64,000 nt of DNA from Escherichia coli (GTDB lineage: Bacteria; Pseudomonadota; Gammaproteobacteria; Enterobacterales; Enterobacteriaceae), in NCBI RefSeq assembly GCF_011045215.1, contig NZ_CP049201.1. One strand, 5' to 3'. The notes beneath the pieces were generated by a model. It saw only the letters and a program-made list of their open reading frames with translations. It searched no databases and was not told where the DNA came from. The first letter of the stretch is position 1. Each line of letters opens with the position of its first letter. Both the position numbers and the translations under genes were made by a program. Below, one piece after another: positions 1 through 31,937 of this stretch.

Positions 1-1
1 C

Positions 2-592
2 GGTAATCCTCCGGCATTTTCCCTGACATCAGACGGGAGACTGACGGCGAAAAATGCGGATATCAGTGGCAGTGTGAATGCGAACTCAGGAACGCTCAAC
101 AATGTCACGATTAACCAGAACTGTACGATTAAGGGCATGCTGGAGGCGACCCAGGTCAGAGGAGATTTCGTTAAAGCTGTATCAAAAGCCTTCCCGAAAA
201 AAGTCGGTACGTGGGGTAACACGGAAACACCAAACGGTACGGTTACAGTCACCATCAGCGATGATCATAACTTTGACCGCCAGATTATTATTCCGCCCAT
301 TATTTTTAACGGTATAGCGTATGACGATCCGGGGAGCGGAAATAACCCAGGAGGCACGCGATACACGGGTTATGGTTTTGAAGTTCGCAAAAACGGCGTA
401 TTAATCGCATCCAGAGAAACTAAAGGGGCCATTCCCGGTAGTTACAGTGCAGTTATTGATATGCCGAGTGGCAGGGGAAGCGTCACTCTGGAGTTTAAGA
501 TTTTCCAGAAAGGCAATCAGGGGGCAGGCAATATCACCGACTGTACGGTGATTGTGACCAAAAAAGCCGCTTCCGGCATCAGTATTCGTTGA
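2..592 (+). CDS. Phage tail tip / host specificity protein J, C-terminal part (5' end lies before the window)
   Basis: The reading frame is open from position 2 to the stop at 592. It is followed by lom, stf and tfa in the canonical lambda order J-lom-stf-tfa. Confidence 0.6.
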   Translation, partial: GNPPAFSLTSDGRLTAKNADISGSVNANSGTLNNVTINQNCTIKGMLEATQVRGDFVKAVSKAFPKKVGTWGNTETPNGTVTVTISDDHNFDRQIIIPPIIFNGIAYDDPGSGNNPGGTRYTGYGFEVRKNGVLIASRETKGAIPGSYSAVIDMPSGRGSVTLEFKIFQKGNQGAGNITDCTVIVTKKAASGISIR

Positions 593-614
593 AATATTTA
601 TAACCCCAATAAAG

Positions 615-638
615 GGCGTCAGGAATGACGCCTTTTTT
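615..638 (+). terminator. Rho-independent terminator after J
   Basis: 7-bp stem GGCGTCA/TGACGCC with GGAA loop, followed by a T6 run. Confidence 0.5.
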
Positions 639-662
639 ATTGCAGAAAAGCGAGAGGTAATT

Positions 663-1262
663 ATGCGTAAAGTTTGTGCAGCAATTTTGTCCGCAGCCAT
701 TTGTCTGGCCGTATCCGGTGCGCCTGCATGGGCGTCTGAACATCAGTCCACGCTGAGCGCGGGGTATCTTCATGCCTCGACGAACGTCCCCGGCAGTGAT
801 GATCTGAACGGGATTAACGTGAAATACCGTTATGAGTTTACGGACACACTGGGGCTGGTGACGTCATTCAGCTATGCAGGAGACAAGAATCGCCAGCTGA
901 CCCGTTACAGCGATACCCGCTGGCATGAAGATTCCGTTCGTAACCGCTGGTTCAGCGTAATGGCGGGGCCGTCTGTGCGCGTAAATGAATGGTTCAGCGC
1001 GTATGCGATGGCGGGTATGGCTTACAGCCGTGTGTCGACTTTCTCCGGGGATTATCTCCGCGTAACTGACAACAAGGGGAAAACGCACGACGTGCTGACC
1101 GGAAGTGATGACGGTCGCCACAGCAACACGTCTCTGGCGTGGGGAGCTGGCGTGCAGTTTAACCCGACCGAATCCGTGGCCATTGATATTGCTTATGAAG
1201 GCTCCGGCAGTGGCGACTGGCGCACTGACGGTTTCATCGTGGGTGTCGGTTATAAGTTCTGA
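663..1262 (+). CDS. lom: Lom-like outer membrane protein (Ail/Lom/OmpX beta-barrel family)
   Basis: 199 aa with a signal peptide (MRKVCAAILSAAICLAVSGAPAWA), alternating beta-strand pattern and C-terminal aromatic residue (GVGYKF). Position between J and stf matches lambda lom. Confidence 0.8.
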   Translation: MRKVCAAILSAAICLAVSGAPAWASEHQSTLSAGYLHASTNVPGSDDLNGINVKYRYEFTDTLGLVTSFSYAGDKNRQLTRYSDTRWHEDSVRNRWFSVMAGPSVRVNEWFSAYAMAGMAYSRVSTFSGDYLRVTDNKGKTHDVLTGSDDGRHSNTSLAWGAGVQFNPTESVAIDIAYEGSGSGDWRTDGFIVGVGYKF

Positions 1263-1290
1263 TTAGCCAGGTAACACAGTGTTATGACAG

Positions 1291-1316
1291 CCCGCCTGTT
1301 CAGGCGGGCTTTTTTG
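1291..1316 (+). terminator. Rho-independent terminator after lom
   Basis: GC-rich stem GCCCGCCTG/CAGGCGGGC followed by a T6 run. Confidence 0.55.
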
Positions 1317-1326
1317 TGGGGTGAAT

Positions 1327-4300
1327 ATGGCAGTAAAGATTTCAGGTGTACTGAAAGACGGCACAGGAAAACCGGTACAGAACTGCACAATCCAGCTGAA
1401 AGCAAAACGTAACAGCACCGCGGTGGTGGTGAACACGCTGGCCTCAGAAAATCCGGATGAAGCCGGGCGTTACAGCATGGACGTTGAGTACGGTCAGTAC
1501 AGCGTTATTCTGTTGGTGGAAGGATTCCCGCCGTCACATGCCGGGACCATCACCGTGTATGAAGATTCCCGACCCGGTACGCTGAATGATTTTCTCGGTG
1601 CCATGACGGAGGATGATGCCCGTCCGGAGGCTCTGCGCCGTTTTGAACTGATGGTGGAAGAGGTGGCGCGTAACGCGTCCGCGGTGGCACAGAACACGGC
1701 AGCCGCGAAGAAGTCAGCCGGCGATGCCGGCACATCTGCCCGTGAGGCGGCAACCCATGCGACTGATGCTGCAGGCTCAGCACGCGCAGCCAGCACGTCA
1801 GCCGGACAGGCCGCTTCGTCGGCTCAGTCAGCGTCTTCCAGCGCAGGAACGGCATCAACAAAGGCCACTGAAGCATCAAAAAGTGCTGCCGCTGCAGAGT
1901 CCTCAAAAAGCGCGGCAGCTACCAGTGCCAGTGCCGCGAAAACGTCAGAAACGAATGCTGCAGCGTCACAACAATCAGCAGCCACTTCTGCATCCACCGC
2001 GACCACGAAAGCGTCAGAAGCTGCCACCTCAGCCCGGGATGCGTCGGCTTCAAAAGAGGCGGCAAAATCATCAGAAACGAACGCATCCTCGAGCGCCAGT
2101 AGCGCATCTTCCTCGGCAACAGCGGCAGGAAATTCCGCGAAGGCGGCAAAAACGTCAGAGACGAACGCCAGGTCTTCTGAAACGGCAGCGGGACAGAGCG
2201 CCTCGGCTGCGGCAGGCTCAAAAACAGCGGCTGCGTCGTCTGCCAGTGCAGCGTCAACAAGTGCCGGGCAGGCCTCAGCCAGTGCCACCGCCGCCGGAAA
2301 ATCGGCAGAAAGCGCCGCATCGTCTGCTTCAACAGCCACAACGAAGGCTGGCGAAGCCACTGAACAGGCCAGCGCAGCAGCGAGGTCTGCTTCCGCAGCG
2401 AAGACATCCGAAACGAACGCGAAAGCGTCGGAAACCAGCGCAGAATCCTCAAAAACGGCTGCCGCATCGTCAGCCAGTTCGGCGGCGTCATCGGCATCAT
2501 CGGCGTCTGCTTCAAAAGATGAGGCGACCAGACAAGCGTCAGCAGCGAAGAGCAGCGCCACGACGGCATCCACGAAGGCGACAGAGGCTGCTGGCAGTGC
2601 GACGGCGGCAGCTCAGAGCAAAAGTACGGCGGAATCCGCGGCAACGCGCGCCGAGACAGCAGCTAAACGGGCAGAGGATATTGCATCCGCCGTGGCGCTT
2701 GAGGATGCAAGTACGACGAAAAAGGGGATAGTACAGCTCAGCAGTGCGACCAACAGTACGTCTGAAACGCTGGCGGCAACGCCAAAGGCAGTAAAATCAG
2801 CCTATGACAATGCAGAGAAACGTCTGCAGAAAGACCAGAACGGCGCTGATATACCCGATAAGGGATGCTTCCTGAACAACATTAACGCGGTCAGTAAAAC
2901 AGACTTTGCTGATAAGCGTGGTATGCGTTATGTGCGGGTTAACGCTCCTGCAGGTGCAACATCTGGAAAATATTACCCTGTTGTTGTTATGCGTTCTGCT
3001 GGCTCAGTAAGCGAACTGGCATCAAGAGTCATTATCACCACGGCAACGCGAACCGCAGGCGATCCGATGAATAACTGCGAGTTTAACGGATTTGTTATGC
3101 CTGGTGGCTGGACTGACAGGGGGCGTTATGCTTATGGCATGTTCTGGCAATATCAAAACAATGAACGAGCCATTCACTCAATAATGATGAGTAATAAGGG
3201 CGATGATTTGCGCTCTGTGTTCTATGTTGATGGCGCTGCTTTCCCTGTTTTTGCGTTTATTGAAGATGGCCTGTCAATATCCGCACCTGGTGCTGATCTC
3301 GTTGTTAATGATACGACCTATAAGTTTGGGGCAACAAATCCGGCGACTGAATGTATCGCGGCGGACGTTATCCTTGATTTTAAGAGTGGGCGTGGTTTTT
3401 ATGAGTCTCATTCGTTAATCGTTAACGATAACTTGTCGTGCAAAAAACTTTTTGCCACAGACGAAATTGTAGCGCGTGGTGGTAATCAGATTCGAATGAT
3501 AGGTGGGGAGTATGGGGCATTATGGCGTAATGATGGCGCTAAAACTTACCTGCTGCTTACCAATCAAGGTGATGTTTATGGTGGCTGGAATACATTAAGA
3601 CCGTTTGCTATTGATAACGCAACCGGCGAACTGGTTATTGGAACCAAACTGTCCGCAAGTCTGAACGGTAATGCATTAACAGCAACAAAGCTGCAAACGC
3701 CAAGACGGGTTTCTGGTGTTGAGTTTGATGGTTCCAAAGATATTACTTTAACCGCCGCGCATGTGGCTGCTTTTGCCAGAAGGGCAACGGATACATATGC
3801 CGATGCGGATGGTGGCGTTCCCTGGAATGCCGAATCAGGCGCTTATAATGTCACCCGCTCTGGCGACAGCTATATTCTGGTTAACTTCTATACCGGAGTC
3901 GGAAGTTGCCGGACCCTGCAGATGAAGGCGCATTACAGAAATGGTGGTCTGTTCTACCGTTCTTCAAGAGACGGTTATGGTTTTGAGGAAGACTGGGCAG
4001 AAGTTTATACCTCGAAAAATCTTCCACCAGAAAGCTACCCAGTCGGCGCACCAATCCCGTGGCCATCAGATACCGTTCCGTCTGGTTATGCCCAGATGCA
4101 GGGGCAGACTTTTGACAAATCTGCCTACCCGAAACTTGCAGCCGCTTATCCGTCAGGCGTGATCCCTGATATGCGTGGCTGGACGATTAAGGGCAAGCCC
4201 GCCAGTGGTCGTGCCGTATTGTCTCAGGAACAGGACGGCATTAAATCGCATACCCACAGCGCCAGCGCATCCAGTACGGATTTGGGTACGAAAACCACAT

Positions 4301-4728
4301 CGTCGTTTGATTACGGAACCAAATCCACGAATAACACCGGGGCGCATACCCATAGTATTAGCGGGACTGCAAATAGTGCCGGTGCGCACCAACACAAGAG
4401 TTCCGGTGCATTTGGTGGCACGAACACGAGCATTTTTCCTAATGGTTATACTGCGATTTCAAATCCAAGCGCGGGGATTATGAGCACAACAAGCGGTACT
4501 GGCCAGACTCGTAATGCAGGGAAGACATCATCAGATGGTGCTCATACCCACTCACTGTCCGGCACTGCTGCAAGCGCAGGTGCACACGCACATACTGTCG
4601 GTATTGGTGCTCATACGCACTCCGTTGCGATTGGTTCACATGGACACACCATCACCGTTAACGCTGCTGGTAACGCGGAAAACACCGTCAAAAACATCGC
4701 ATTTAACTATATTGTGAGGCTTGCATAA
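1327..4728 (+). CDS. stf: Side tail fiber protein (Stf family)
   Basis: Long ORF whose N-terminus ([26 protein letters not shown]...) matches the prophage side-tail-fiber family. It has an Ala/Ser/Thr-rich repeat tract and C-terminal GAHTHS-type repeats. ATG at 1327 is preferred over the GTG at 1321 used by the ORF track. Confidence 0.85.
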
Positions 4729-5309
4729 TGGCATTCAGAATGAGTGAACAACCACGGACCATAAAAATTTATAATCTGCTGGCCGGAACTAATGAATTTA
4801 TTGGTGAAGGTGACGCATATATTCCACCTCATACAGGTCTGCCAGCAAACAGTACCGATATTGCACCGCCAGATATTCCGGCAGGCTTCGTGGCTGTTTT
4901 CAACAGTGATGAGGCATCGTGGCATCTTGTTGAAGACCATCGGGGTAAAACGGTTTATGACGTGGCTTCCGGCGACGCGTTATTTATTTCTGAACTCGGC
5001 TTATTACCGGAAAATGTCACCTGGTTATCCCCGGAAGGGGAGTTTCAGAAGTGGAACGGCACAGCCTGGGTGAAAGATGCAGAAGCAGAAAAACTGTTCC
5101 GGATCCGGGAGGCGGAAGAAACAAAAAACAACCTGATGCAGGTAGCCAGTGAGCATATTGCGCCACTTCAGGATGCTGTAGATCTGGAAATCGCAACGGA
5201 GGAAGAAAACTCGTTGCTGGAAGCCTGGAAGAAGTATCGGGTGTTGCTGAACCGTGTTGATACATCAACTGCACCTGATATTGAGTGGCCTGTAATACCA
5301 GAAGTTTAA
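4728..5309 (+). CDS. tfa: Tail fiber assembly protein (Tfa)
   Basis: 193 aa; its start overlaps the stf stop (TAATG). Sequence and position are typical of lambdoid Tfa chaperones. Confidence 0.8.
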
Positions 5310-5314
5310 AATAA

Positions 5315-5340
5315 AAGCCCGCTTAAAATATCGCGGGCTT
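5315..5340. terminator. Bidirectional terminator hairpin between tfa (+) and the catalase gene (-)
   Basis: Stem AAGCCCGC/GCGGGCTT. On the minus strand it is followed by a T-rich tract (complement of TTTAAAATAAAA). Confidence 0.45.
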
Positions 5341-5428
5341 CGAAATATAAATGTATTTTCAGAGGCTAGAGCTTAGGATATCTCAGCGGCAATTAACTTA
5401 TGAGGGATAGCTAAATACCAGAAGATAA

Positions 5429-6319
5429 TTAGTTTTTACTATTTATCTTTGTTTGTGGTTCTCCTTCAGCAAGCTCAGCGCCAGTGACAGGATTGATGTC
5501 TTCATGGGATTTCAACCTTGTTGCCATAGCTTTTATCATAGCTTCTTGCTTGGTCGAAAGATTTATCGAGGCCTTCCCATCCCCACCGTCAACCGCTGGA
5601 ACTGGATCGGAAATATAGTCAAAGTTTTCATCACTGTTCCAACTACCTCTGACGTCTTCACCTTCTGACATGTTGTAATATACGTTTTTGTATTTCTCAA
5701 TTGGTGGTAATTTTCCTGGTGGAAAGGTGTTGCGAATTGAATGTAATGCTTTTTCAAATGAAAGCATGTGTGCTGCTTCCCTGGTCATTAAAAATGCCAG
5801 AGTGTCTTTTACTCCAGGATCATCAGTAACATTAATGAGACGTTCGTAAATGATCTTTGCCCGAGCTTCAGCTGCAATATTTGAACGAAGATCGGCCGTG
5901 ACTTCGCCAATAGTATCAACATAAGCTGCAGTCCAGGGTACTCCAGCTGAATTAGTTAATGCTGGGCCTCCTCCGTAGAGGAGAGAAGTTATATGGCTGT
6001 CATTGCCATTTTGAGTTAAGGAACGGTAAAGCTCAGCTTCATTCTCAGTTCCTTCAGCAAGTGCTCCTTTTGCACCTTTGTTGAGCATACCAACAAGAGA
6101 ACCAATAATTTCGAGATGACTTAGTTCTTCTGTTGCTATGTCCATCAGCATATCCCTTCGGCCTGCATCTTCATCACTTAAGCCTTGAGTGAAGTATCGG
6201 CATGCTGCTGCAAGCTCACCCTGTGGCCCGCCGAATTGTTCTAAAAGTAGATTAGCCAAGCCTGGGTTTGGCTCACTTACACGTACTGTATATTGAAGTT
6301 TTTTCACGTGTCTAAACAT
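5429..6319 (-). CDS. katN: Manganese (non-haem) catalase, KatN-like
   Basis: 296-aa protein with ferritin-like di-metal catalase features, resembling Salmonella KatN. A GAGGAGG ribosome-binding site lies 6-12 nt upstream. It is the last gene of a co-directional four-gene cluster. Confidence 0.8.
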   Translation of the reverse strand: MFRHVKKLQYTVRVSEPNPGLANLLLEQFGGPQGELAAACRYFTQGLSDEDAGRRDMLMDIATEELSHLEIIGSLVGMLNKGAKGALAEGTENEAELYRSLTQNGNDSHITSLLYGGGPALTNSAGVPWTAAYVDTIGEVTADLRSNIAAEARAKIIYERLINVTDDPGVKDTLAFLMTREAAHMLSFEKALHSIRNTFPPGKLPPIEKYKNVYYNMSEGEDVRGSWNSDENFDYISDPVPAVDGGDGKASINLSTKQEAMIKAMATRLKSHEDINPVTGAELAEGEPQTKINSKN

Positions 6320-6337
6320 AATGCCTCCTCAAAAGAA

Positions 6338-6844
6338 TTATTTTTTGGCTTCAACTCCATCAATTTCAGATCTGACCATGAATTGCTCAGTGGTGTCAGG
6401 AATATGGTTAAGAAGCCATTCAGCCATTTGTTTTTCTTCATTAAGAATTGCTTCAATAATGGGTACTGAAGCTGTATCACCCGCATTTTTGGCTGCTGCG
6501 AGAAGAGATGTGTAGCACGCAATTTCAAATTGTTCGAAAACATAGCCACTGATCGAACCTTTGACAATTTCATCAGATGGAAAAATTCCACCAATGGATT
6601 GCCCAAACGCGGCCATTTTACTCATAGAGTCTTTAATGACAGAGCGCGAAATATTATTACGATCAAGTATGCTTTCAAGCTGTGAAAGCTGGTTCTTTGT
6701 TTCGCTAATGTGCTGCTCAATTCTGGAACGTAACTCTGGATAGTTTTCTATCCGGCTGGCCATAGACTCAAGCATTTTTTCAGCTTGTTTCTCCATCGCA
6801 TGTGCATCACGAAGCCAGTCATGGTAATGTTCAATTCTATTCAT
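6338..6844 (-). CDS. yciE: YciE-like ferritin-like (DUF892) stress protein
   Basis: 168 aa; resembles YciE; tightly linked upstream of the catalase gene. Confidence 0.75.
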   Translation of the reverse strand: MNRIEHYHDWLRDAHAMEKQAEKMLESMASRIENYPELRSRIEQHISETKNQLSQLESILDRNNISRSVIKDSMSKMAAFGQSIGGIFPSDEIVKGSISGYVFEQFEIACYTSLLAAAKNAGDTASVPIIEAILNEEKQMAEWLLNHIPDTTEQFMVRSEIDGVEAKK

Positions 6845-6880
6845 AATCTGTTTATCCTAAAAGAAATTGAAGTCTATAGT

Positions 6881-7387
6881 TCAGGAGTTATCCTGAGCTT
6901 TTTTATTAACGTTATTAAATGCCAGGTCTGTTAATTTGACATCAGTAGCTTTTTCCTCTTCCAGTGTTTCTTTCAGGAGTTTAGCCGCTTTTTTATATCC
7001 TAATTGCTCAGCGAGTGTTACCAAAGTGCCATAACTGGCAATTTCATAGTGCTCTACTTTTTGTGCTGCAGCAATCAATGCAGCATCACGTACTTCATTT
7101 TTATCAGTGCTTTCAATTACCTCATTCGCCTCTTCGATAAGTCCTTCCATTGCGGCACACTTAATTCTTTTCAATTTAAGACCATCTTCAGAATCAACAA
7201 TCTGATCGATGCGTTCAATTTGACCATGTGTCTCATCAAGATGTGACTGAAAAGCAGCGGTTAATTTATCACTATATGCAGAGCGACTAAGTTTAGACAG
7301 TGCCTTTGTTAGTTGTTTCTCAGCGCTGTATGTATCCGATAATAAGTGGATGAAGATATCTTCAACAGATTTAATTTGCATAATCAC
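6881..7387 (-). CDS. yciF: YciF-like ferritin-like (DUF892) stress protein
   Basis: 168 aa; YciF-like sequence; same orientation and operon context. Confidence 0.75.
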   Translation of the reverse strand: MIMQIKSVEDIFIHLLSDTYSAEKQLTKALSKLSRSAYSDKLTAAFQSHLDETHGQIERIDQIVDSEDGLKLKRIKCAAMEGLIEEANEVIESTDKNEVRDAALIAAAQKVEHYEIASYGTLVTLAEQLGYKKAAKLLKETLEEEKATDVKLTDLAFNNVNKKAQDNS

Positions 7388-7400
7388 TCCAGAGTTTTCA

Positions 7401-7422
7401 CTGCGAGCCCGTAGGCTCGCAG
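7401..7422 (-). other. Perfect 9-bp stem hairpin between the yciG-like and yciF-like genes
   Basis: CTGCGAGCC-CGTA-GGCTCGCAG. No clear U-tract follows, so it is more likely an RNA stabiliser or partial attenuator than a full terminator. Confidence 0.3.
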
Positions 7423-7459
7423 TTAGCTTCAGTTATTCACGAATGTAGGGGATGATAAA

Positions 7460-7642
7460 TTAAGAGTCAGATTTACGGCCGCCACCATGGCTATTCTGAC
7501 CACCTTTTTTCCCTGCTTCTGATGCTCTTTGTGGATCGTTTTTAAAATTACCGCCACTATGTTGGCCGCCTTTACGACCAGCGTCAGAAGCTTTTTGTCG
7601 ATCTTCAGCGAAATTACCTGCACCGCCACGATGTTCGGTCAT
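7460..7642 (-). CDS. yciG: YciG-like KGG-repeat general stress protein
   Basis: 60 aa with repeated KGG and GGNF motifs (MTEHRGGAGNFAEDRQKASDAGRKGGQHSGGNFKNDPQRASEAGKKGG...); first gene of the cluster. Confidence 0.7.
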   Translation of the reverse strand: MTEHRGGAGNFAEDRQKASDAGRKGGQHSGGNFKNDPQRASEAGKKGGQNSHGGGRKSDS

Positions 7643-7707
7643 ATCATTTCTCCTCTGATTTTCAAATTGTAAATAACATGTGCCTTGTCAGCACCCAATT
7701 AACTTTA

Positions 7708-7770
7708 GTAACAAATAAGAAAGTGTCAAATAACAGATTGGTATGCGCATTTTGATGTGACAAATAACAG
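7708..7770. promoter_or_regulatory. Putative promoter/operator region of the yciG-like operon with direct repeats
   Basis: Two near-identical 14-mers, GTGTCAAATAACAG (7723-7736) and GTGACAAATAACAG (7757-7770), plus a partial third copy ACAAATAA (7711-7718), in AT-rich DNA just upstream of the yciG-like start. Confidence 0.3.
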
Positions 7771-7872
7771 TTGTAAAAAATATGTGCTCAGTGAGTATAA
7801 TTTATTGATATCTTAGTGATTAATGGGAAGTTTAGGTTGTAACTCAAAAGATTAATATACCCAAATTTACAT

Positions 7873-8211
7873 TTATATATTATTTGATGCTCCTGGTGTT
7901 GTTTTTCTCAATAAGAATACTCTGTAAAATAATTCAATCGTAAGATGGTGGTTATTCATATTTTTGAGATACTTCCTAATAGAGTCCATCCCTTGAATAA
8001 ATAATTGTTTTAAAATTTCGTCTAACAAACTAATTACAAAAACTTTTATATAACCCAAAGAATCATGATTATTCTTAATCGTCAAGATTTGACCGTAAAA
8101 ATTTAAGCACAGAAAATTGTGTGCAAGGATGTGTTGTTCAGTCTGTCGAACTTTCGATAGTTTGAGTATTAAATGATTTCCAGCCGTTATTGATTTTACG
8201 CGTAATTCCAT
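7873..8211 (-). CDS. Hypothetical protein (AT-rich orphan ORF, may be spurious)
   Basis: 112-aa ORF in a strongly AT-rich stretch between the stress operon and ydfJ. No recognisable motif and no obvious ribosome-binding site. Confidence 0.2.
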   Translation of the reverse strand: MELRVKSITAGNHLILKLSKVRQTEQHILAHNFLCLNFYGQILTIKNNHDSLGYIKVFVISLLDEILKQLFIQGMDSIRKYLKNMNNHHLTIELFYRVFLLRKTTPGASNNI

Positions 8212-27416: not shown

Positions 27417-28343
27417 GTGGCAGTCGCCATGGATAATGCAATTTTAGAAAACATCTTGCGGCAAGTGCGGCCGCTCATTGGTCAGGGTAAAGTCGCGGAT
27501 TATATTCCGGCGCTGGCTACGGTAGACGGTTCCCGATTGGGCATTGCTATCTGTACCGTTGACGGACAGCTTTTTCAGGCCGGAGACGCGCAAGAACGTT
27601 TTTCCATTCAGTCTATTTCCAAAGTGCTGAGTCTCGTTGTCGCCATGCGTCATTACTCCGAAGAGGAAATCTGGCAACGCGTCGGCAAAGATCCGTCTGG
27701 ATCACCGTTCAATTCTTTAGTGCAACTGGAAATGGAGCAGGGTATTCCGCGTAATCCGTTTATTAATGCCGGTGCGCTGGTGGTCTGCGATATGTTGCAA
27801 GGGCGATTAAGCGCACCACGGCAACGTATGCTGGAAGTCGTGCGCGGCTTAAGCGGTGTGTCTGATATTTCCTACGATACGGTGGTAGCGCGTTCCGAAT
27901 TTGAACATTCCGCGCGAAATGCGGCTATCGCCTGGCTGATGAAGTCGTTTGGCAATTTCCATCATGACGTGACAACCGTTCTGCAAAACTACTTTCATTA
28001 CTGCGCTCTGAAAATGAGCTGTGTAGAGCTGGCCCGGACGTTTGTCTTTCTGGCTAATCAGGGGAAAGCTATTCATATTGATGAACCTGTGGTGACGCCA
28101 ATGCAGGCACGGCAAATTAACGCGCTGATGGCGACCAGTGGTATGTACCAGAACGCGGGGGAGTTTGCCTGGCGGGTGGGACTACCGGCGAAATCTGGCG
28201 TTGGTGGCGGTATTGTGGCGATTGTTCCGCATGAAATGGCCATCGCAGTCTGGAGTCCGGAACTGGATGATGCTGGTAACTCGCTTGCGGGCATTGCCGT
28301 CCTTGAACAATTGACGAAACAGTTAGGGCGTTCGGTTTATTAA
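27417..28343 (+). CDS. glsB: Glutaminase 2 (GlsB/YneH)
   Basis: 308 aa; serine-dependent glutaminase family. Confidence 0.85.
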
Positions 28344-28702
28344 TGCAGTCTCTCGATCCACTCTTCGCGCGTTTATCCCGTTCAAAATTTCGATCTCGCT
28401 TTCGTTTGGGCATGAAAGAGCGTCAGTATTGTCTGGAGAAAGGCGCGCCAGTCATCGAACAACATGCGGCGGATTTTGTCGCTAAACGTCTTGCTCCGGC
28501 ATTACCGGCTAATGACGGTAAGCAAACCCCCATGCGCGGGCATCCGGTGTTTATCGCTCAGCACGCCACTGCAACCTGTTGTCGCGGTTGTCTGGCTAAG
28601 TGGCATAACATTCCGCAGGGTGTTTCGTTAAGCGAGCAACAACAACGTTATATCGTGGCGGTAATCTATCACTGGCTGGTTGTACAGATGAATCAGCCAT
28701 GA
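28343..28702 (+). CDS. yneG: DUF4186-family protein YneG
   Basis: 119 aa; start overlaps the glsB stop. Confidence 0.7.
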   Translation: MQSLDPLFARLSRSKFRSRFRLGMKERQYCLEKGAPVIEQHAADFVAKRLAPALPANDGKQTPMRGHPVFIAQHATATCCRGCLAKWHNIPQGVSLSEQQQRYIVAVIYHWLVVQMNQP

Positions 28703-28840
28703 GAATTGCGGAAAACGACAAAATAGTATTCCCAGGGTACCTTTATTTGCCGCCGCTGTCAGCGAACATGCTATCCTTTATGAGAATTTACTTATTACGT
28801 TGAGATAATTGCCACCCGCAATTGTATGGACAGATAATTA

Positions 28841-30259
28841 ATGCATGTACACCCCATTTCAACTTTCCGTGTGTTCCAGGAAGGTCATCTGCTACGTAAT
28901 AGCATCGCTATTTTTGCGCTAACCACGCTGTTCTATTTTATTGGTGCAGAGTTACGGCTGGTTCACGAACTTTCTCTTTTCTGGCCGCTGAATGGCGTAA
29001 TGGCGGGGGTGTTTGCCCGCTATGTCTGGCTTAATCGACTGCATTACTATGCGATCAGTTATGCGGCGATGCTGGTTTATGATGCCATAACCACCGAATG
29101 GGGACTGGTTTCACTGGCTATCAATTTCTCCAATATGATGTTTATTGTTACCGTCGCCTTACTGGTCGTGCGGGATAAGCGTCTGGGGAAAAATAAGTAT
29201 GAGCCAGTAAGTGCCTTACGGCTATTTAATTACTGTCTGATTGCCGCATTATTATGCGCTATTGTCGGGGCGATTGGTTCGGTCAGTATTGATAGTCTGG
29301 ATTTCTGGCCTTTGCTTGCGGACTGGTTCAGTGAGCAATTCTCAACGGGCGTGTTGATCGTGCCTTGTATGCTGACGTTGGCTATTCCTGGAGTGCTGCC
29401 GCGCTTTAAAGCAGAACAGATGATGCCCGCCATCGCGCTTATTGTGTCGGTTATTGCCTCGGTAGTCATTGGCGGAGCGGGGAGTCTGGCGTTCCCGCTG
29501 CCTGCATTAATCTGGTGTGCAGTGCGCTATACGCCGCAGGTAACATGTCTGTTGACCTTTGTTACCGGTGCGGTGGAAATCGTACTGGTGGCTAATTCGG
29601 TGATTGATATCTCGGTCGGTTCGCCGTTCTCCATTCCGGAAATGTTCTCCGCACGTCTCGGTATTGCCACGATGGCGATATGCCCAATTATGGTTTCTTT
29701 TAGCGTGGCAGCGATCAATTCGCTAATGAAGCAAGTTGCGCTGCGAGCCGACTTTGATTTTCTGACTCAGGTTTACTCACGGTCCGGTCTTTATGAGGCG
29801 CTGAAAAGTCCATCGCTGAAACAGACACAACATCTGACTGTCATGCTGCTTGATATCGACTATTTCAAAAGTATTAACGATAACTATGGACATGAATGTG
29901 GCGATAAAGTGTTAAGCGTGTTTGCCCGGCATATTCAGAAGATTGTCGGTGATAAGGGGCTGGTGGCGCGCATGGGCGGCGAAGAATTTGCTGTTGCAGT
30001 GCCGTCGGTGAATCCTGTCGATGGTCTGCTAATGGCGGAAAAAATCCGTAAAGGCGTTGAACTGCAACCATTCACCTGGCAACAAAAAACGCTTTATCTC
30101 ACGGTAAGTATTGGCGTCGGTAGTGGTCGCGCATCGTACCGAACGCTGACCGATGACTTTAATAAATTGATGGTCGAAGCCGATACGTGTCTGTATCGCT
30201 CGAAGAAAGATGGGCGCAACCGTACCAGCACTATGCGTTACGGTGAGGAAGTTGTCTGA
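28841..30259 (+). CDS. dgcF: Membrane-anchored diguanylate cyclase DgcF (YneF)
   Basis: N-terminal polytopic membrane sensor region followed by a GGDEF domain (RMGGEEF). Start codon is uncertain. Confidence 0.7.
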   Translation: MHVHPISTFRVFQEGHLLRNSIAIFALTTLFYFIGAELRLVHELSLFWPLNGVMAGVFARYVWLNRLHYYAISYAAMLVYDAITTEWGLVSLAINFSNMMFIVTVALLVVRDKRLGKNKYEPVSALRLFNYCLIAALLCAIVGAIGSVSIDSLDFWPLLADWFSEQFSTGVLIVPCMLTLAIPGVLPRFKAEQMMPAIALIVSVIASVVIGGAGSLAFPLPALIWCAVRYTPQVTCLLTFVTGAVEIVLVANSVIDISVGSPFSIPEMFSARLGIATMAICPIMVSFSVAAINSLMKQVALRADFDFLTQVYSRSGLYEALKSPSLKQTQHLTVMLLDIDYFKSINDNYGHECGDKVLSVFARHIQKIVGDKGLVARMGGEEFAVAVPSVNPVDGLLMAEKIRKGVELQPFTWQQKTLYLTVSIGVGSGRASYRTLTDDFNKLMVEADTCLYRSKKDGRNRTSTMRYGEEVV

Positions 30260-30485
30260 CATCTTTGTTCATTCAGAGCGATTTAAATGCAATGTGTTCT
30301 ACCACTTTATGATCCAGGAAAAGGCGTTTTTCCTCGATTAAACCATGATCCGCGCCACACTTTTCTCATAAAACTGCTCATTAATCATCAGGAGTTGATC
30401 AAAACAGGGGTTCGGCGTATTAAAGTTTGTTAACCTGTCGTACCAATTCAAACAGGTTGTATGACTAATCAGAAGGGAACCCATT

Positions 30486-31937
30486 GTGAAAACACTAAAT
30501 CGTCGCGATTTTCCCGGTGCACAGTATCCAGAACGTATCATTCAGTTTGGTGAAGGTAACTTCCTGCGCGCCTTTGTTGACTGGCAAATAGATCTCCTGA
30601 ATGAGCACACCGATCTGAATTCTGGCGTGGTCGTTGTTCGTCCGATTGAAACTTCATTCCCGCCGTCACTGAGCACGCAGGATGGTCTGTACACCACCAT
30701 TATCCGTGGCCTGAATGAGAAGGGGGAAGCGGTCAGCGACGCGCGTCTGATTCGCTCGGTTAATCGTGAAATCAGCGTCTACAGTGAATACGATGAATTC
30801 CTGAAACTGGCGCACAACCCGGAAATGCGCTTTGTTTTCTCTAACACCACCGAAGCGGGTATCAGCTACCATGCGGGCGATAAATTCGATGATGCGCCAG
30901 CGGTAAGCTATCCCGCAAAACTGACACGTCTGCTATTCGAGCGTTTTAGCCATTTCAACGGTGCGCTGGATAAAGGTTGGATCATCATCCCGTGTGAGTT
31001 GATCGACTACAATGGCGACGCGTTGCGTGAACTGGTGCTGCGCTATGCGCAAGAGTGGGCACTGCCAGAAGCATTTATTCAATGGCTGGATCAGGCTAAC
31101 AGCTTCTGTTCTACGCTGGTGGACCGTATCGTTACCGGTTATCCGCGTGATGAAGTGGCTAAACTGGAAGAAGAACTGGGTTATCACGATGGTTTCCTCG
31201 ACACCGCTGAACACTTTTACCTGTTTGTGATTCAGGGACCGGAATCCTTAGCGACCGAGCTGCGTCTGGACAAATATCCGCTCAACGTGCTGATTGTTGA
31301 CGATATTAAACCGTATAAAGAACGCAAAGTGGCAATACTCAACGGTGCACACACCGCGTTGGTGCCGGTGGCGTTCCAGGCAGGGCTGGATACCGTAGGT
31401 GAAGCGATGAACGATGCTGAAATTTGCGCATTCGTTGAAAAAGCCATCTACGAAGAAATTATTCCGGTACTGGATTTGCCACGCGATGAACTGGAATCTT
31501 TCGCCAGTGCAGTCACCGGGCGTTTCCGTAACCCGTACATTAAGCATCAGCTGCTGTCTATCGCGCTCAACGGTATGACCAAGTTCCGTACCCGCATCCT
31601 GCCGCAGCTGCTGGCAGGGCAGAAGGCAAACGGCACACTTCCGGCGCGCCTTACTTTCGCATTAGCGGCGTTGATTGCGTTCTATCGTGGTGAGCGTAAC
31701 GGAGAAACATATCCGGTACAGGACGATGCACACTGGCTGGAACGTTATCAGCAACTCTGGAGCCAGCATCGTGACCGTGTTATCGGTACCCAGGAACTGG
31801 TAGCGATTGTGTTGGCAGAAAAAGACCACTGGGAGCAGGACCTGACGCAAGTGCCTGGTCTGGTCGAGCAGGTTGCTAATGACCTGGATGCGATTCTTGA
31901 AAAAGGGATGCGCGAAGCTGTACGTCCGTTGTGCTAA
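30486..31937 (+). CDS. uxaB: Altronate oxidoreductase (tagaturonate reductase) UxaB
   Basis: 483 aa; mannitol-dehydrogenase-family N-terminus ([13 protein letters not shown]). Confidence 0.85.

Follow-up and report, generated by a model that had tools for sequence, protein, structure and literature searches.

How does one and the same gene come to be annotated with 472 codons in one Escherichia coli strain and with far fewer in the K-12 reference? The question is posed by dgcF (also called yneF), a diguanylate cyclase gene within a 64,000-nucleotide stretch of E. coli contig NZ_CP049201.1 (assembly GCF_011045215.1), the whole of which is referred to here as the window and supplies all coordinates below. 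A first-pass annotation had described a long DgcF of 472 residues, with some 300 residues of polytopic membrane domain before the GGDEF domain, and had suggested that, if the annotated K-12 product is shorter, this strain may carry the ancestral full-length sensor. We consider it very probable that dgcF in the window encodes an intact, ancestral inner-membrane diguanylate cyclase with a divergent MASE1-type sensor, and that K-12 carries the silent remnant of a derived 498-bp deletion, misannotated as a 315-residue protein starting at an internal TTG. The existence of a full-length dgcF and of a truncated K-12 copy is already published (PMC4287979, PMC5635695): it is a textbook case of K-12 gene decay and has been in the literature since 2014.

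A 498-bp deletion accounts for the short K-12 form

The features on which the comparison with K-12 turns are as follows.

28835-28837, plus strand: in-frame TAA bounding the 5′ end of the dgcF open reading frame (ORF), from translation of the upstream frame
28841-30259, plus strand: dgcF (yneF) coding sequence, 472 residues plus stop, from the ORF list; coding sequences of identical length occur in A16 and O157:H7 EC4115
28776-29273, no strand assigned: 498-bp segment absent from K-12, from pairwise BLAST and base-by-base junction mapping against BW25113
29312-29314, plus strand: TTG (Leu158 here), annotated start of the 315-residue K-12 product, from the MG1655 annotation and translation
28780-28809 and 28809-28838, plus strand: two overlapping sigma-70-like promoter matches from a consensus scan, just 5′ of the ATG and inside the K-12 deletion

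The program-made ORF list gives an ATG-initiated frame of 472 codons on the plus strand. Because an in-frame TAA stands two codons upstream, no earlier start is possible, and the initiator M1 is invariant in orthologues from four genera (24-sequence alignment). A megablast search with window positions 28600-30500 found DNA matches of at least 95% identity in 5414 of 5426 complete E. coli genomes, and dgcF is therefore a real gene rather than a chance ORF. The K-12 derivatives align with this query in two pieces that cover only 74% of it. What they lack is 65 bp of upstream sequence, the ATG, codons 1-144 and the first base of codon 145; the gap is the same in MG1655 as in BW25113. On the predicted model, the deletion takes away transmembrane helices 1-4 and most of helix 5. 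Base-by-base inspection of the deletion ends found no microhomology beyond an imperfect GC(T/G)AT.

A shorter K-12 product does exist, as the first-pass annotation had supposed: MG1655 dgcF (b1522/NP_416039.1) is annotated at 948 bp and 315 residues, and differs from residues 158-472 of the window protein only by E267Q and R434L. The two proteins are thus not of the same length and sequence (315 versus 472 residues). The Prokaryotic Genome Annotation Pipeline (PGAP) labels the K-12-type remnant a pseudogene ('incomplete; missing N-terminus'), both in BW25113 and in one bovine isolate. Alignment to K-12 yneF/dgcF, which the first-pass annotation had proposed with a start-site or frameshift difference in mind, therefore upheld the difference itself but replaced its supposed cause: the short K-12 form is due to a deletion, and not to start-site choice or a frameshift.

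These observations agree with earlier work. Richter et al. (2014, PMC4287979) reported that K-12 yneF is truncated at its 5′ end by a deletion, so that its start codon is misannotated, and explained the lack of expression in W3110 in this way; the full-size protein was described with a hydrophobic N-terminal domain some 300 residues long, an intact active site (A-site) and no inhibitory site (I-site), and expression of the full gene as weak and mainly RpoS-dependent. For the same reason, namely the disruption of K-12 dgcF by a 5′ deletion, Sarenko et al. (2017, PMC5635695) worked with the DgcF of strain 55989; in K-12 the protein was undetectable. The window gene resembles the full-size form of enteroaggregative (O104:H4/55989), enterohaemorrhagic (O157:H7) and uropathogenic (CFT073) E. 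coli and of Shigella flexneri 2457T, with 472 residues and the locus order glsB-yneG-dgcF-uxaB, from which it differs only by allelic substitutions such as Ala75 in place of Val. It is unlike the K-12 remnant (b1522), which lacks the 498 bp and is not expressed (PMC4287979, PMC5635695).

The position of the gene and its near-identity to annotated DgcF place it in the E. coli DgcF/YneF orthologous group. In the window gene list it is flanked by glsB (27417-28343), yneG (28343-28702) and uxaB (30486-31937), and the order yneG-dgcF-uxaB is shared by the window, A16, EC4115 and MG1655. PGAP calls the same 1419-bp coding sequence in near-identical genomes ('sensor domain-containing diguanylate cyclase'), and the A16 and O157:H7 EC4115 proteins differ from the window protein by one or two residues. 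A scan downstream of dgcF found no terminator. As a separate observation, Ala75 (29063-29065), in the third membrane helix, is seen here as a conservative change: of the other 23 aligned orthologues, 22 have Val at this position and one is frameshifted and uninformative.

Ancestry and spread of the two alleles

Searches with the 300 N-terminal residues recovered full-length orthologues in Escherichia fergusonii (472 residues, 87% identity), in Citrobacter (83%) and in Enterobacter and Lelliottia (about 72%), the last three genera with proteins of 478-485 residues; each of these orthologues has a C-terminal GGDEF domain. Because four genera have full-length orthologues whose membrane domain is highly conserved, the long form is ancestral and the K-12 state derived, which substantiates the earlier suggestion that this strain carries the ancestral full-length sensor. 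The invariant stretches of the membrane domain further indicate, at the level of sequence, that the long form is under purifying selection.

Within E. coli, 4190 of the 5426 complete genomes contain the 498-bp segment with a coverage of at least 80%. The deletion was followed with a 60-mer spanning the K-12 junction (L001:1647-1706), either side of which is by itself too short to score at the E-value limit used; it occurs in 1217 of the 5426 genomes, with an identity of at least 99% in 1212. Of 60 junction-positive genomes sampled at even intervals, about 11 were recognisable laboratory K-12 derivatives. The remainder were of human, pig, cattle or poultry origin, or came from a frog, soil or wastewater, and their chromosomes reach 5.3 Mb; one junction-positive bovine isolate was inspected directly. 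Since an identical junction is found in so many genomes, mostly of natural isolates, the 5′ deletion is a natural polymorphism that predates K-12. Sarenko et al. call the deletion 'specific to K-12' (PMC5635695); contrary to this wording, it is a widespread natural allele. Loss of DgcF is accordingly common in nature rather than an artefact of the laboratory. K-12 is a poor reference for dgcF, its copy being a silent remnant, and anyone studying cyclic di-GMP (c-di-GMP) signalling in wild or pathogenic strains of E. coli must work with the full-length gene, as is already the practice of the Hengge laboratory.

The catalytic domain

29747-30223, plus strand: GGDEF catalytic domain, residues 303-461, from Pfam
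29975-29989, plus strand: A-site motif GGEEF, residues 379-383, from a motif search; local sequence HIQKIVGDKGLVARMGGEEF

The C-terminal part of DgcF matches the GGDEF domain models PF00990 and TIGR00254 above their curated thresholds (Pfam, residues 303-461, E 2.4e-40; NCBIfam agrees). Besides the GG(D/E)EF motif, it retains the conserved substrate- and metal-binding residues: D338, D340, K343, N346, D347, H351, D355, R377, K455 and R459 are each at least 90% conserved among 84 distant homologues. In the motif search, the upstream I-site position reads GDKG and not RxxD. Both readings agree with PMC4287979 and with the motif table for CFT073 YneF (PMC3484386). By these sequence features DgcF is a GGDEF diguanylate cyclase, and c-di-GMP synthesis is known from S. 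flexneri DgcF, which raises c-di-GMP where a GG-to-AA mutant does not (PMC11327459). The S. flexneri protein also influences acid resistance, invasion and plaque size (PMC11327459). In CFT073, deletion of yneF leads to less biofilm on glycerol and poorer adherence to bladder cells; the deletion is rescued by the heterologous cyclase WspR (PMC3484386).

The membrane sensor domain

28889-29716, plus strand: membrane sensor domain, residues ~17-292, about ten predicted transmembrane helices, divergent MASE1-like

The long form with a polytopic membrane domain of about 300 residues ahead of the GGDEF domain, as first described, is borne out by the ORF, by the strong hydrophobicity of residues 17-292 and by an AlphaFold2 model built with 84 homologues (mean predicted local distance difference test score 91.6, predicted template modelling score 0.85). 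The model has about ten membrane helices, followed by a long helix (residues 265-304) that leads into the GGDEF fold. Across the 24-sequence alignment, the stretches SLFWPLNG, DWFSEQFSTGVL and GGAGSLAFPLPALIWCAVRY of the membrane domain are invariant. An internal duplication of this domain was considered and rejected (hhalign of the first against the second half, probability 0.7%).

The family to which the domain belongs was approached through its relatives. A phmmer search of 1.8 billion cluster representatives returned 404 relatives of DgcF, many of them 460-500 residues long and aligned over query residues ~20-298 at 27-40% identity; matches over this region have E values from 1e-15 to 1e-54. 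Of 84 homologues, 52 match the Pfam MASE1 model (PF05231) at E up to 0.01. Two of the relatives are MASE1 hybrid histidine kinases. The chain is illustrated by two proteins: DgcF reaches P0213 with E 9.2e-18 and P0256 with E 9.3e-15, over about 280 residues, and these score 36.2 and 34.4 bits on nearly the whole MASE1 model, for which the gathering cut-off is 29.8 bits. A profile of the enterobacterial DgcF clade alone matches all eight relatives tested, with E values (scaled to the full library) between 1e-17 and 1e-47, seven of these relatives being ones that had a MASE1 match at E <0.01. MASE1 is also present in E. coli DgcE, PdeF and YfeA (PMC3484386), and DgcF shares with these and with UhpB-type kinases a polytopic module of about 300 residues placed N-terminal to signalling output domains; the enterobacterial DgcF branch differs from them in being too divergent for a direct Pfam match. 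On this transitive homology and shared architecture, the DgcF membrane domain is best described as a divergent MASE1. Two other candidates were set aside: SAYSvFN, the sole Pfam match of the N-terminal domain (E 0.18), was rejected as meaningless, and a 'MASE5' family for YneF was dropped, as no relevant literature and no match to such a model were found.

A further observation concerns the predicted fold. The DgcF model superposes on solved energy-coupling factor (ECF) transporter S-components, resembling RibU, FolT, ThiT, BioY, BtuM and CbiM as well as the 5TMR-LYT domain, a comparison that involves a model and not a solved structure of DgcF; it differs from the S-components in having about ten helices instead of six and in involving no ECF module. 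Neither sequence homology nor association with an ECF transporter module accompanies this likeness. A sequence profile of the membrane domain found no relative among PDB chains, the DgcF homologues gave a single weak match to PF07155 (E 0.006) and otherwise no significant sequence similarity to S-components, and no ECF genes lie next to dgcF in the window or EC4115 neighbourhoods. The S-component likeness of DgcF thus remains a structural resemblance, seen in a predicted model. In 2014 the sensor domain of DgcF was regarded as unique within E. coli (PMC4287979), and in 2024 the S-component fold was linked to 5TMR-LYT receptors in a study that does not mention MASE domains (PMC11109136). Two proposals, taken jointly, seem to us to fall slightly short of an even chance of being right: that the DgcF sensor belongs to MASE1 as a very divergent member and has a core with the ECF S-component fold, and that the K-12 5′ deletion has become fixed, as a natural polymorphism, in a wild lineage large enough to make up 22% of complete genomes. 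If true, the MASE1/S-component reading would extend the proposed link between transporters and receptors from 5TMR-LYT to MASE1-type sensors, and would suggest a small hydrophobic or vitamin-like ligand bound inside the membrane.

A model for DgcF function and its alternatives

We propose that the membrane module (residues ~17-292) would dimerise and receive a membrane-level or partner-protein signal, which the 265-304 helix would relay so as to bring two GGDEF domains into alignment. The aligned domains would then condense two molecules of GTP into c-di-GMP, and since there is no RxxD I-site their output would be free of a product-feedback limit; the c-di-GMP produced would be expected to promote sessility and adherence. 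The signal could be a small ligand embedded in the membrane; both the S-component-like fold of the model and the conserved motifs of polar and aromatic residues would suit such a ligand. Alternatively, it could be a partner protein, by analogy with the DgcE MASE1 domain and RdcA.

Several points weigh against this picture. With E values of up to 0.01 for the whole protein and up to 10 for residues 1-300, no Pfam MASE1 match was found in DgcF; lacking a direct match of the window protein, the assignment to MASE1 is transitive. That the module senses and dimerises is something we infer. Some Shigella DgcF phenotypes did not track measured c-di-GMP (PMC11327459). Finally, the putative dgcF promoter sites are weak consensus matches: the sigma-70 scan of the region gave five sites against 3.2 expected and so lends weak support taken alone, although the loss of these sites is consistent with the reported absence of dgcF expression in K-12.

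Among the alternatives, the one that survives best is that the N-terminal domain senses no ligand and serves as an anchor and dimerisation platform, or as a site for partner docking or proteolysis like the MASE1 domain of DgcE. There is no known ligand of DgcF, and induced dgcF in S. flexneri gives a constitutively high reporter signal during infection (PMC11327459), both in favour of this alternative; the strong conservation of the membrane-embedded polar and aromatic motifs SLFWPLNG, DWFSEQFSTG and GGAGSLAFPLPALIWCAVRY and the predicted likeness to small-molecule-binding S-components would suit a binding pocket, though neither is decisive, and we regard this alternative as unlikely but worth keeping in view. 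Far less credible is the idea that translation from the internal TTG yields a functional, shorter cyclase from the K-12 remnant, the species then having two functional isoforms. The remnant does keep an open frame and an intact GGDEF domain, and PMC3484386 attributes to papers that it cites a motility phenotype of a K-12 yneF deletion, but the promoter-like upstream region and the native start are deleted, only the last five membrane helices would remain, and neither lacZ fusions nor tagged protein revealed expression in K-12 (PMC4287979, PMC5635695). A last alternative takes the 315-residue form for the true gene and the long ORF for an artefact of one strain (an upstream extension, fusion or mis-assembly); it has the reference K-12 annotation as its only support, and is refuted to the point of near-certainty by the spread of the 498-bp segment and by orthologues of 472-485 residues from other genera, in which M1 and many membrane residues are invariant, besides the high-confidence model of the whole protein, the pseudogene flag on the remnant and the published long form (PMC4287979, PMC5635695).

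We therefore retain the reading of window dgcF as an intact cyclase with a divergent MASE1-type sensor. The MASE1 and fold results leave the overall picture unchanged and offer clues to what this orphan sensor might respond to.

Variation around dgcF

Some E. coli assemblies contain in-frame chimeras in which the N-terminus of DgcF is joined to a C-terminal part of HipA, with the junction after residue 303 or 340; in another type, a C-terminal part resembling YneE (bestrophin) follows residue 235 (proteins P0008, P0009 and P0058; also megablast match H40). These chimeras therefore appear to reflect independent deletions from within dgcF into downstream genes on the same strand, up to about 20 kb away, and the interval from dgcF to hipA, including the lsr operon, looks deletion-prone. 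The hipA toxin gene itself appears to be truncated in this strain, as about 730 bp of the K-12 hipA N-terminal part (MG1655 1591356-1592087) have no counterpart at window position 49055; hipA of O157:H7 EC4115 is similarly annotated ('HipA ... missing N-terminus').

Further along, about 3.3 kb of the window (50352-53632) are missing at position 1590079 of MG1655, a point flanked by the ydeT usher fragment and the yneL pseudogene. This seems to be a second K-12 deletion inside the 64-kb window, one that affects the ydeQRST fimbrial cluster. At the other end, positions 1-8152, upstream of ydfJ, have a patchy K-12 match only (4036-5290, 96%, in the tfaQ/stfQ region); K-12 carries the cryptic prophage Qin upstream of ydfJ, and its prophage content there differs from that of the window.
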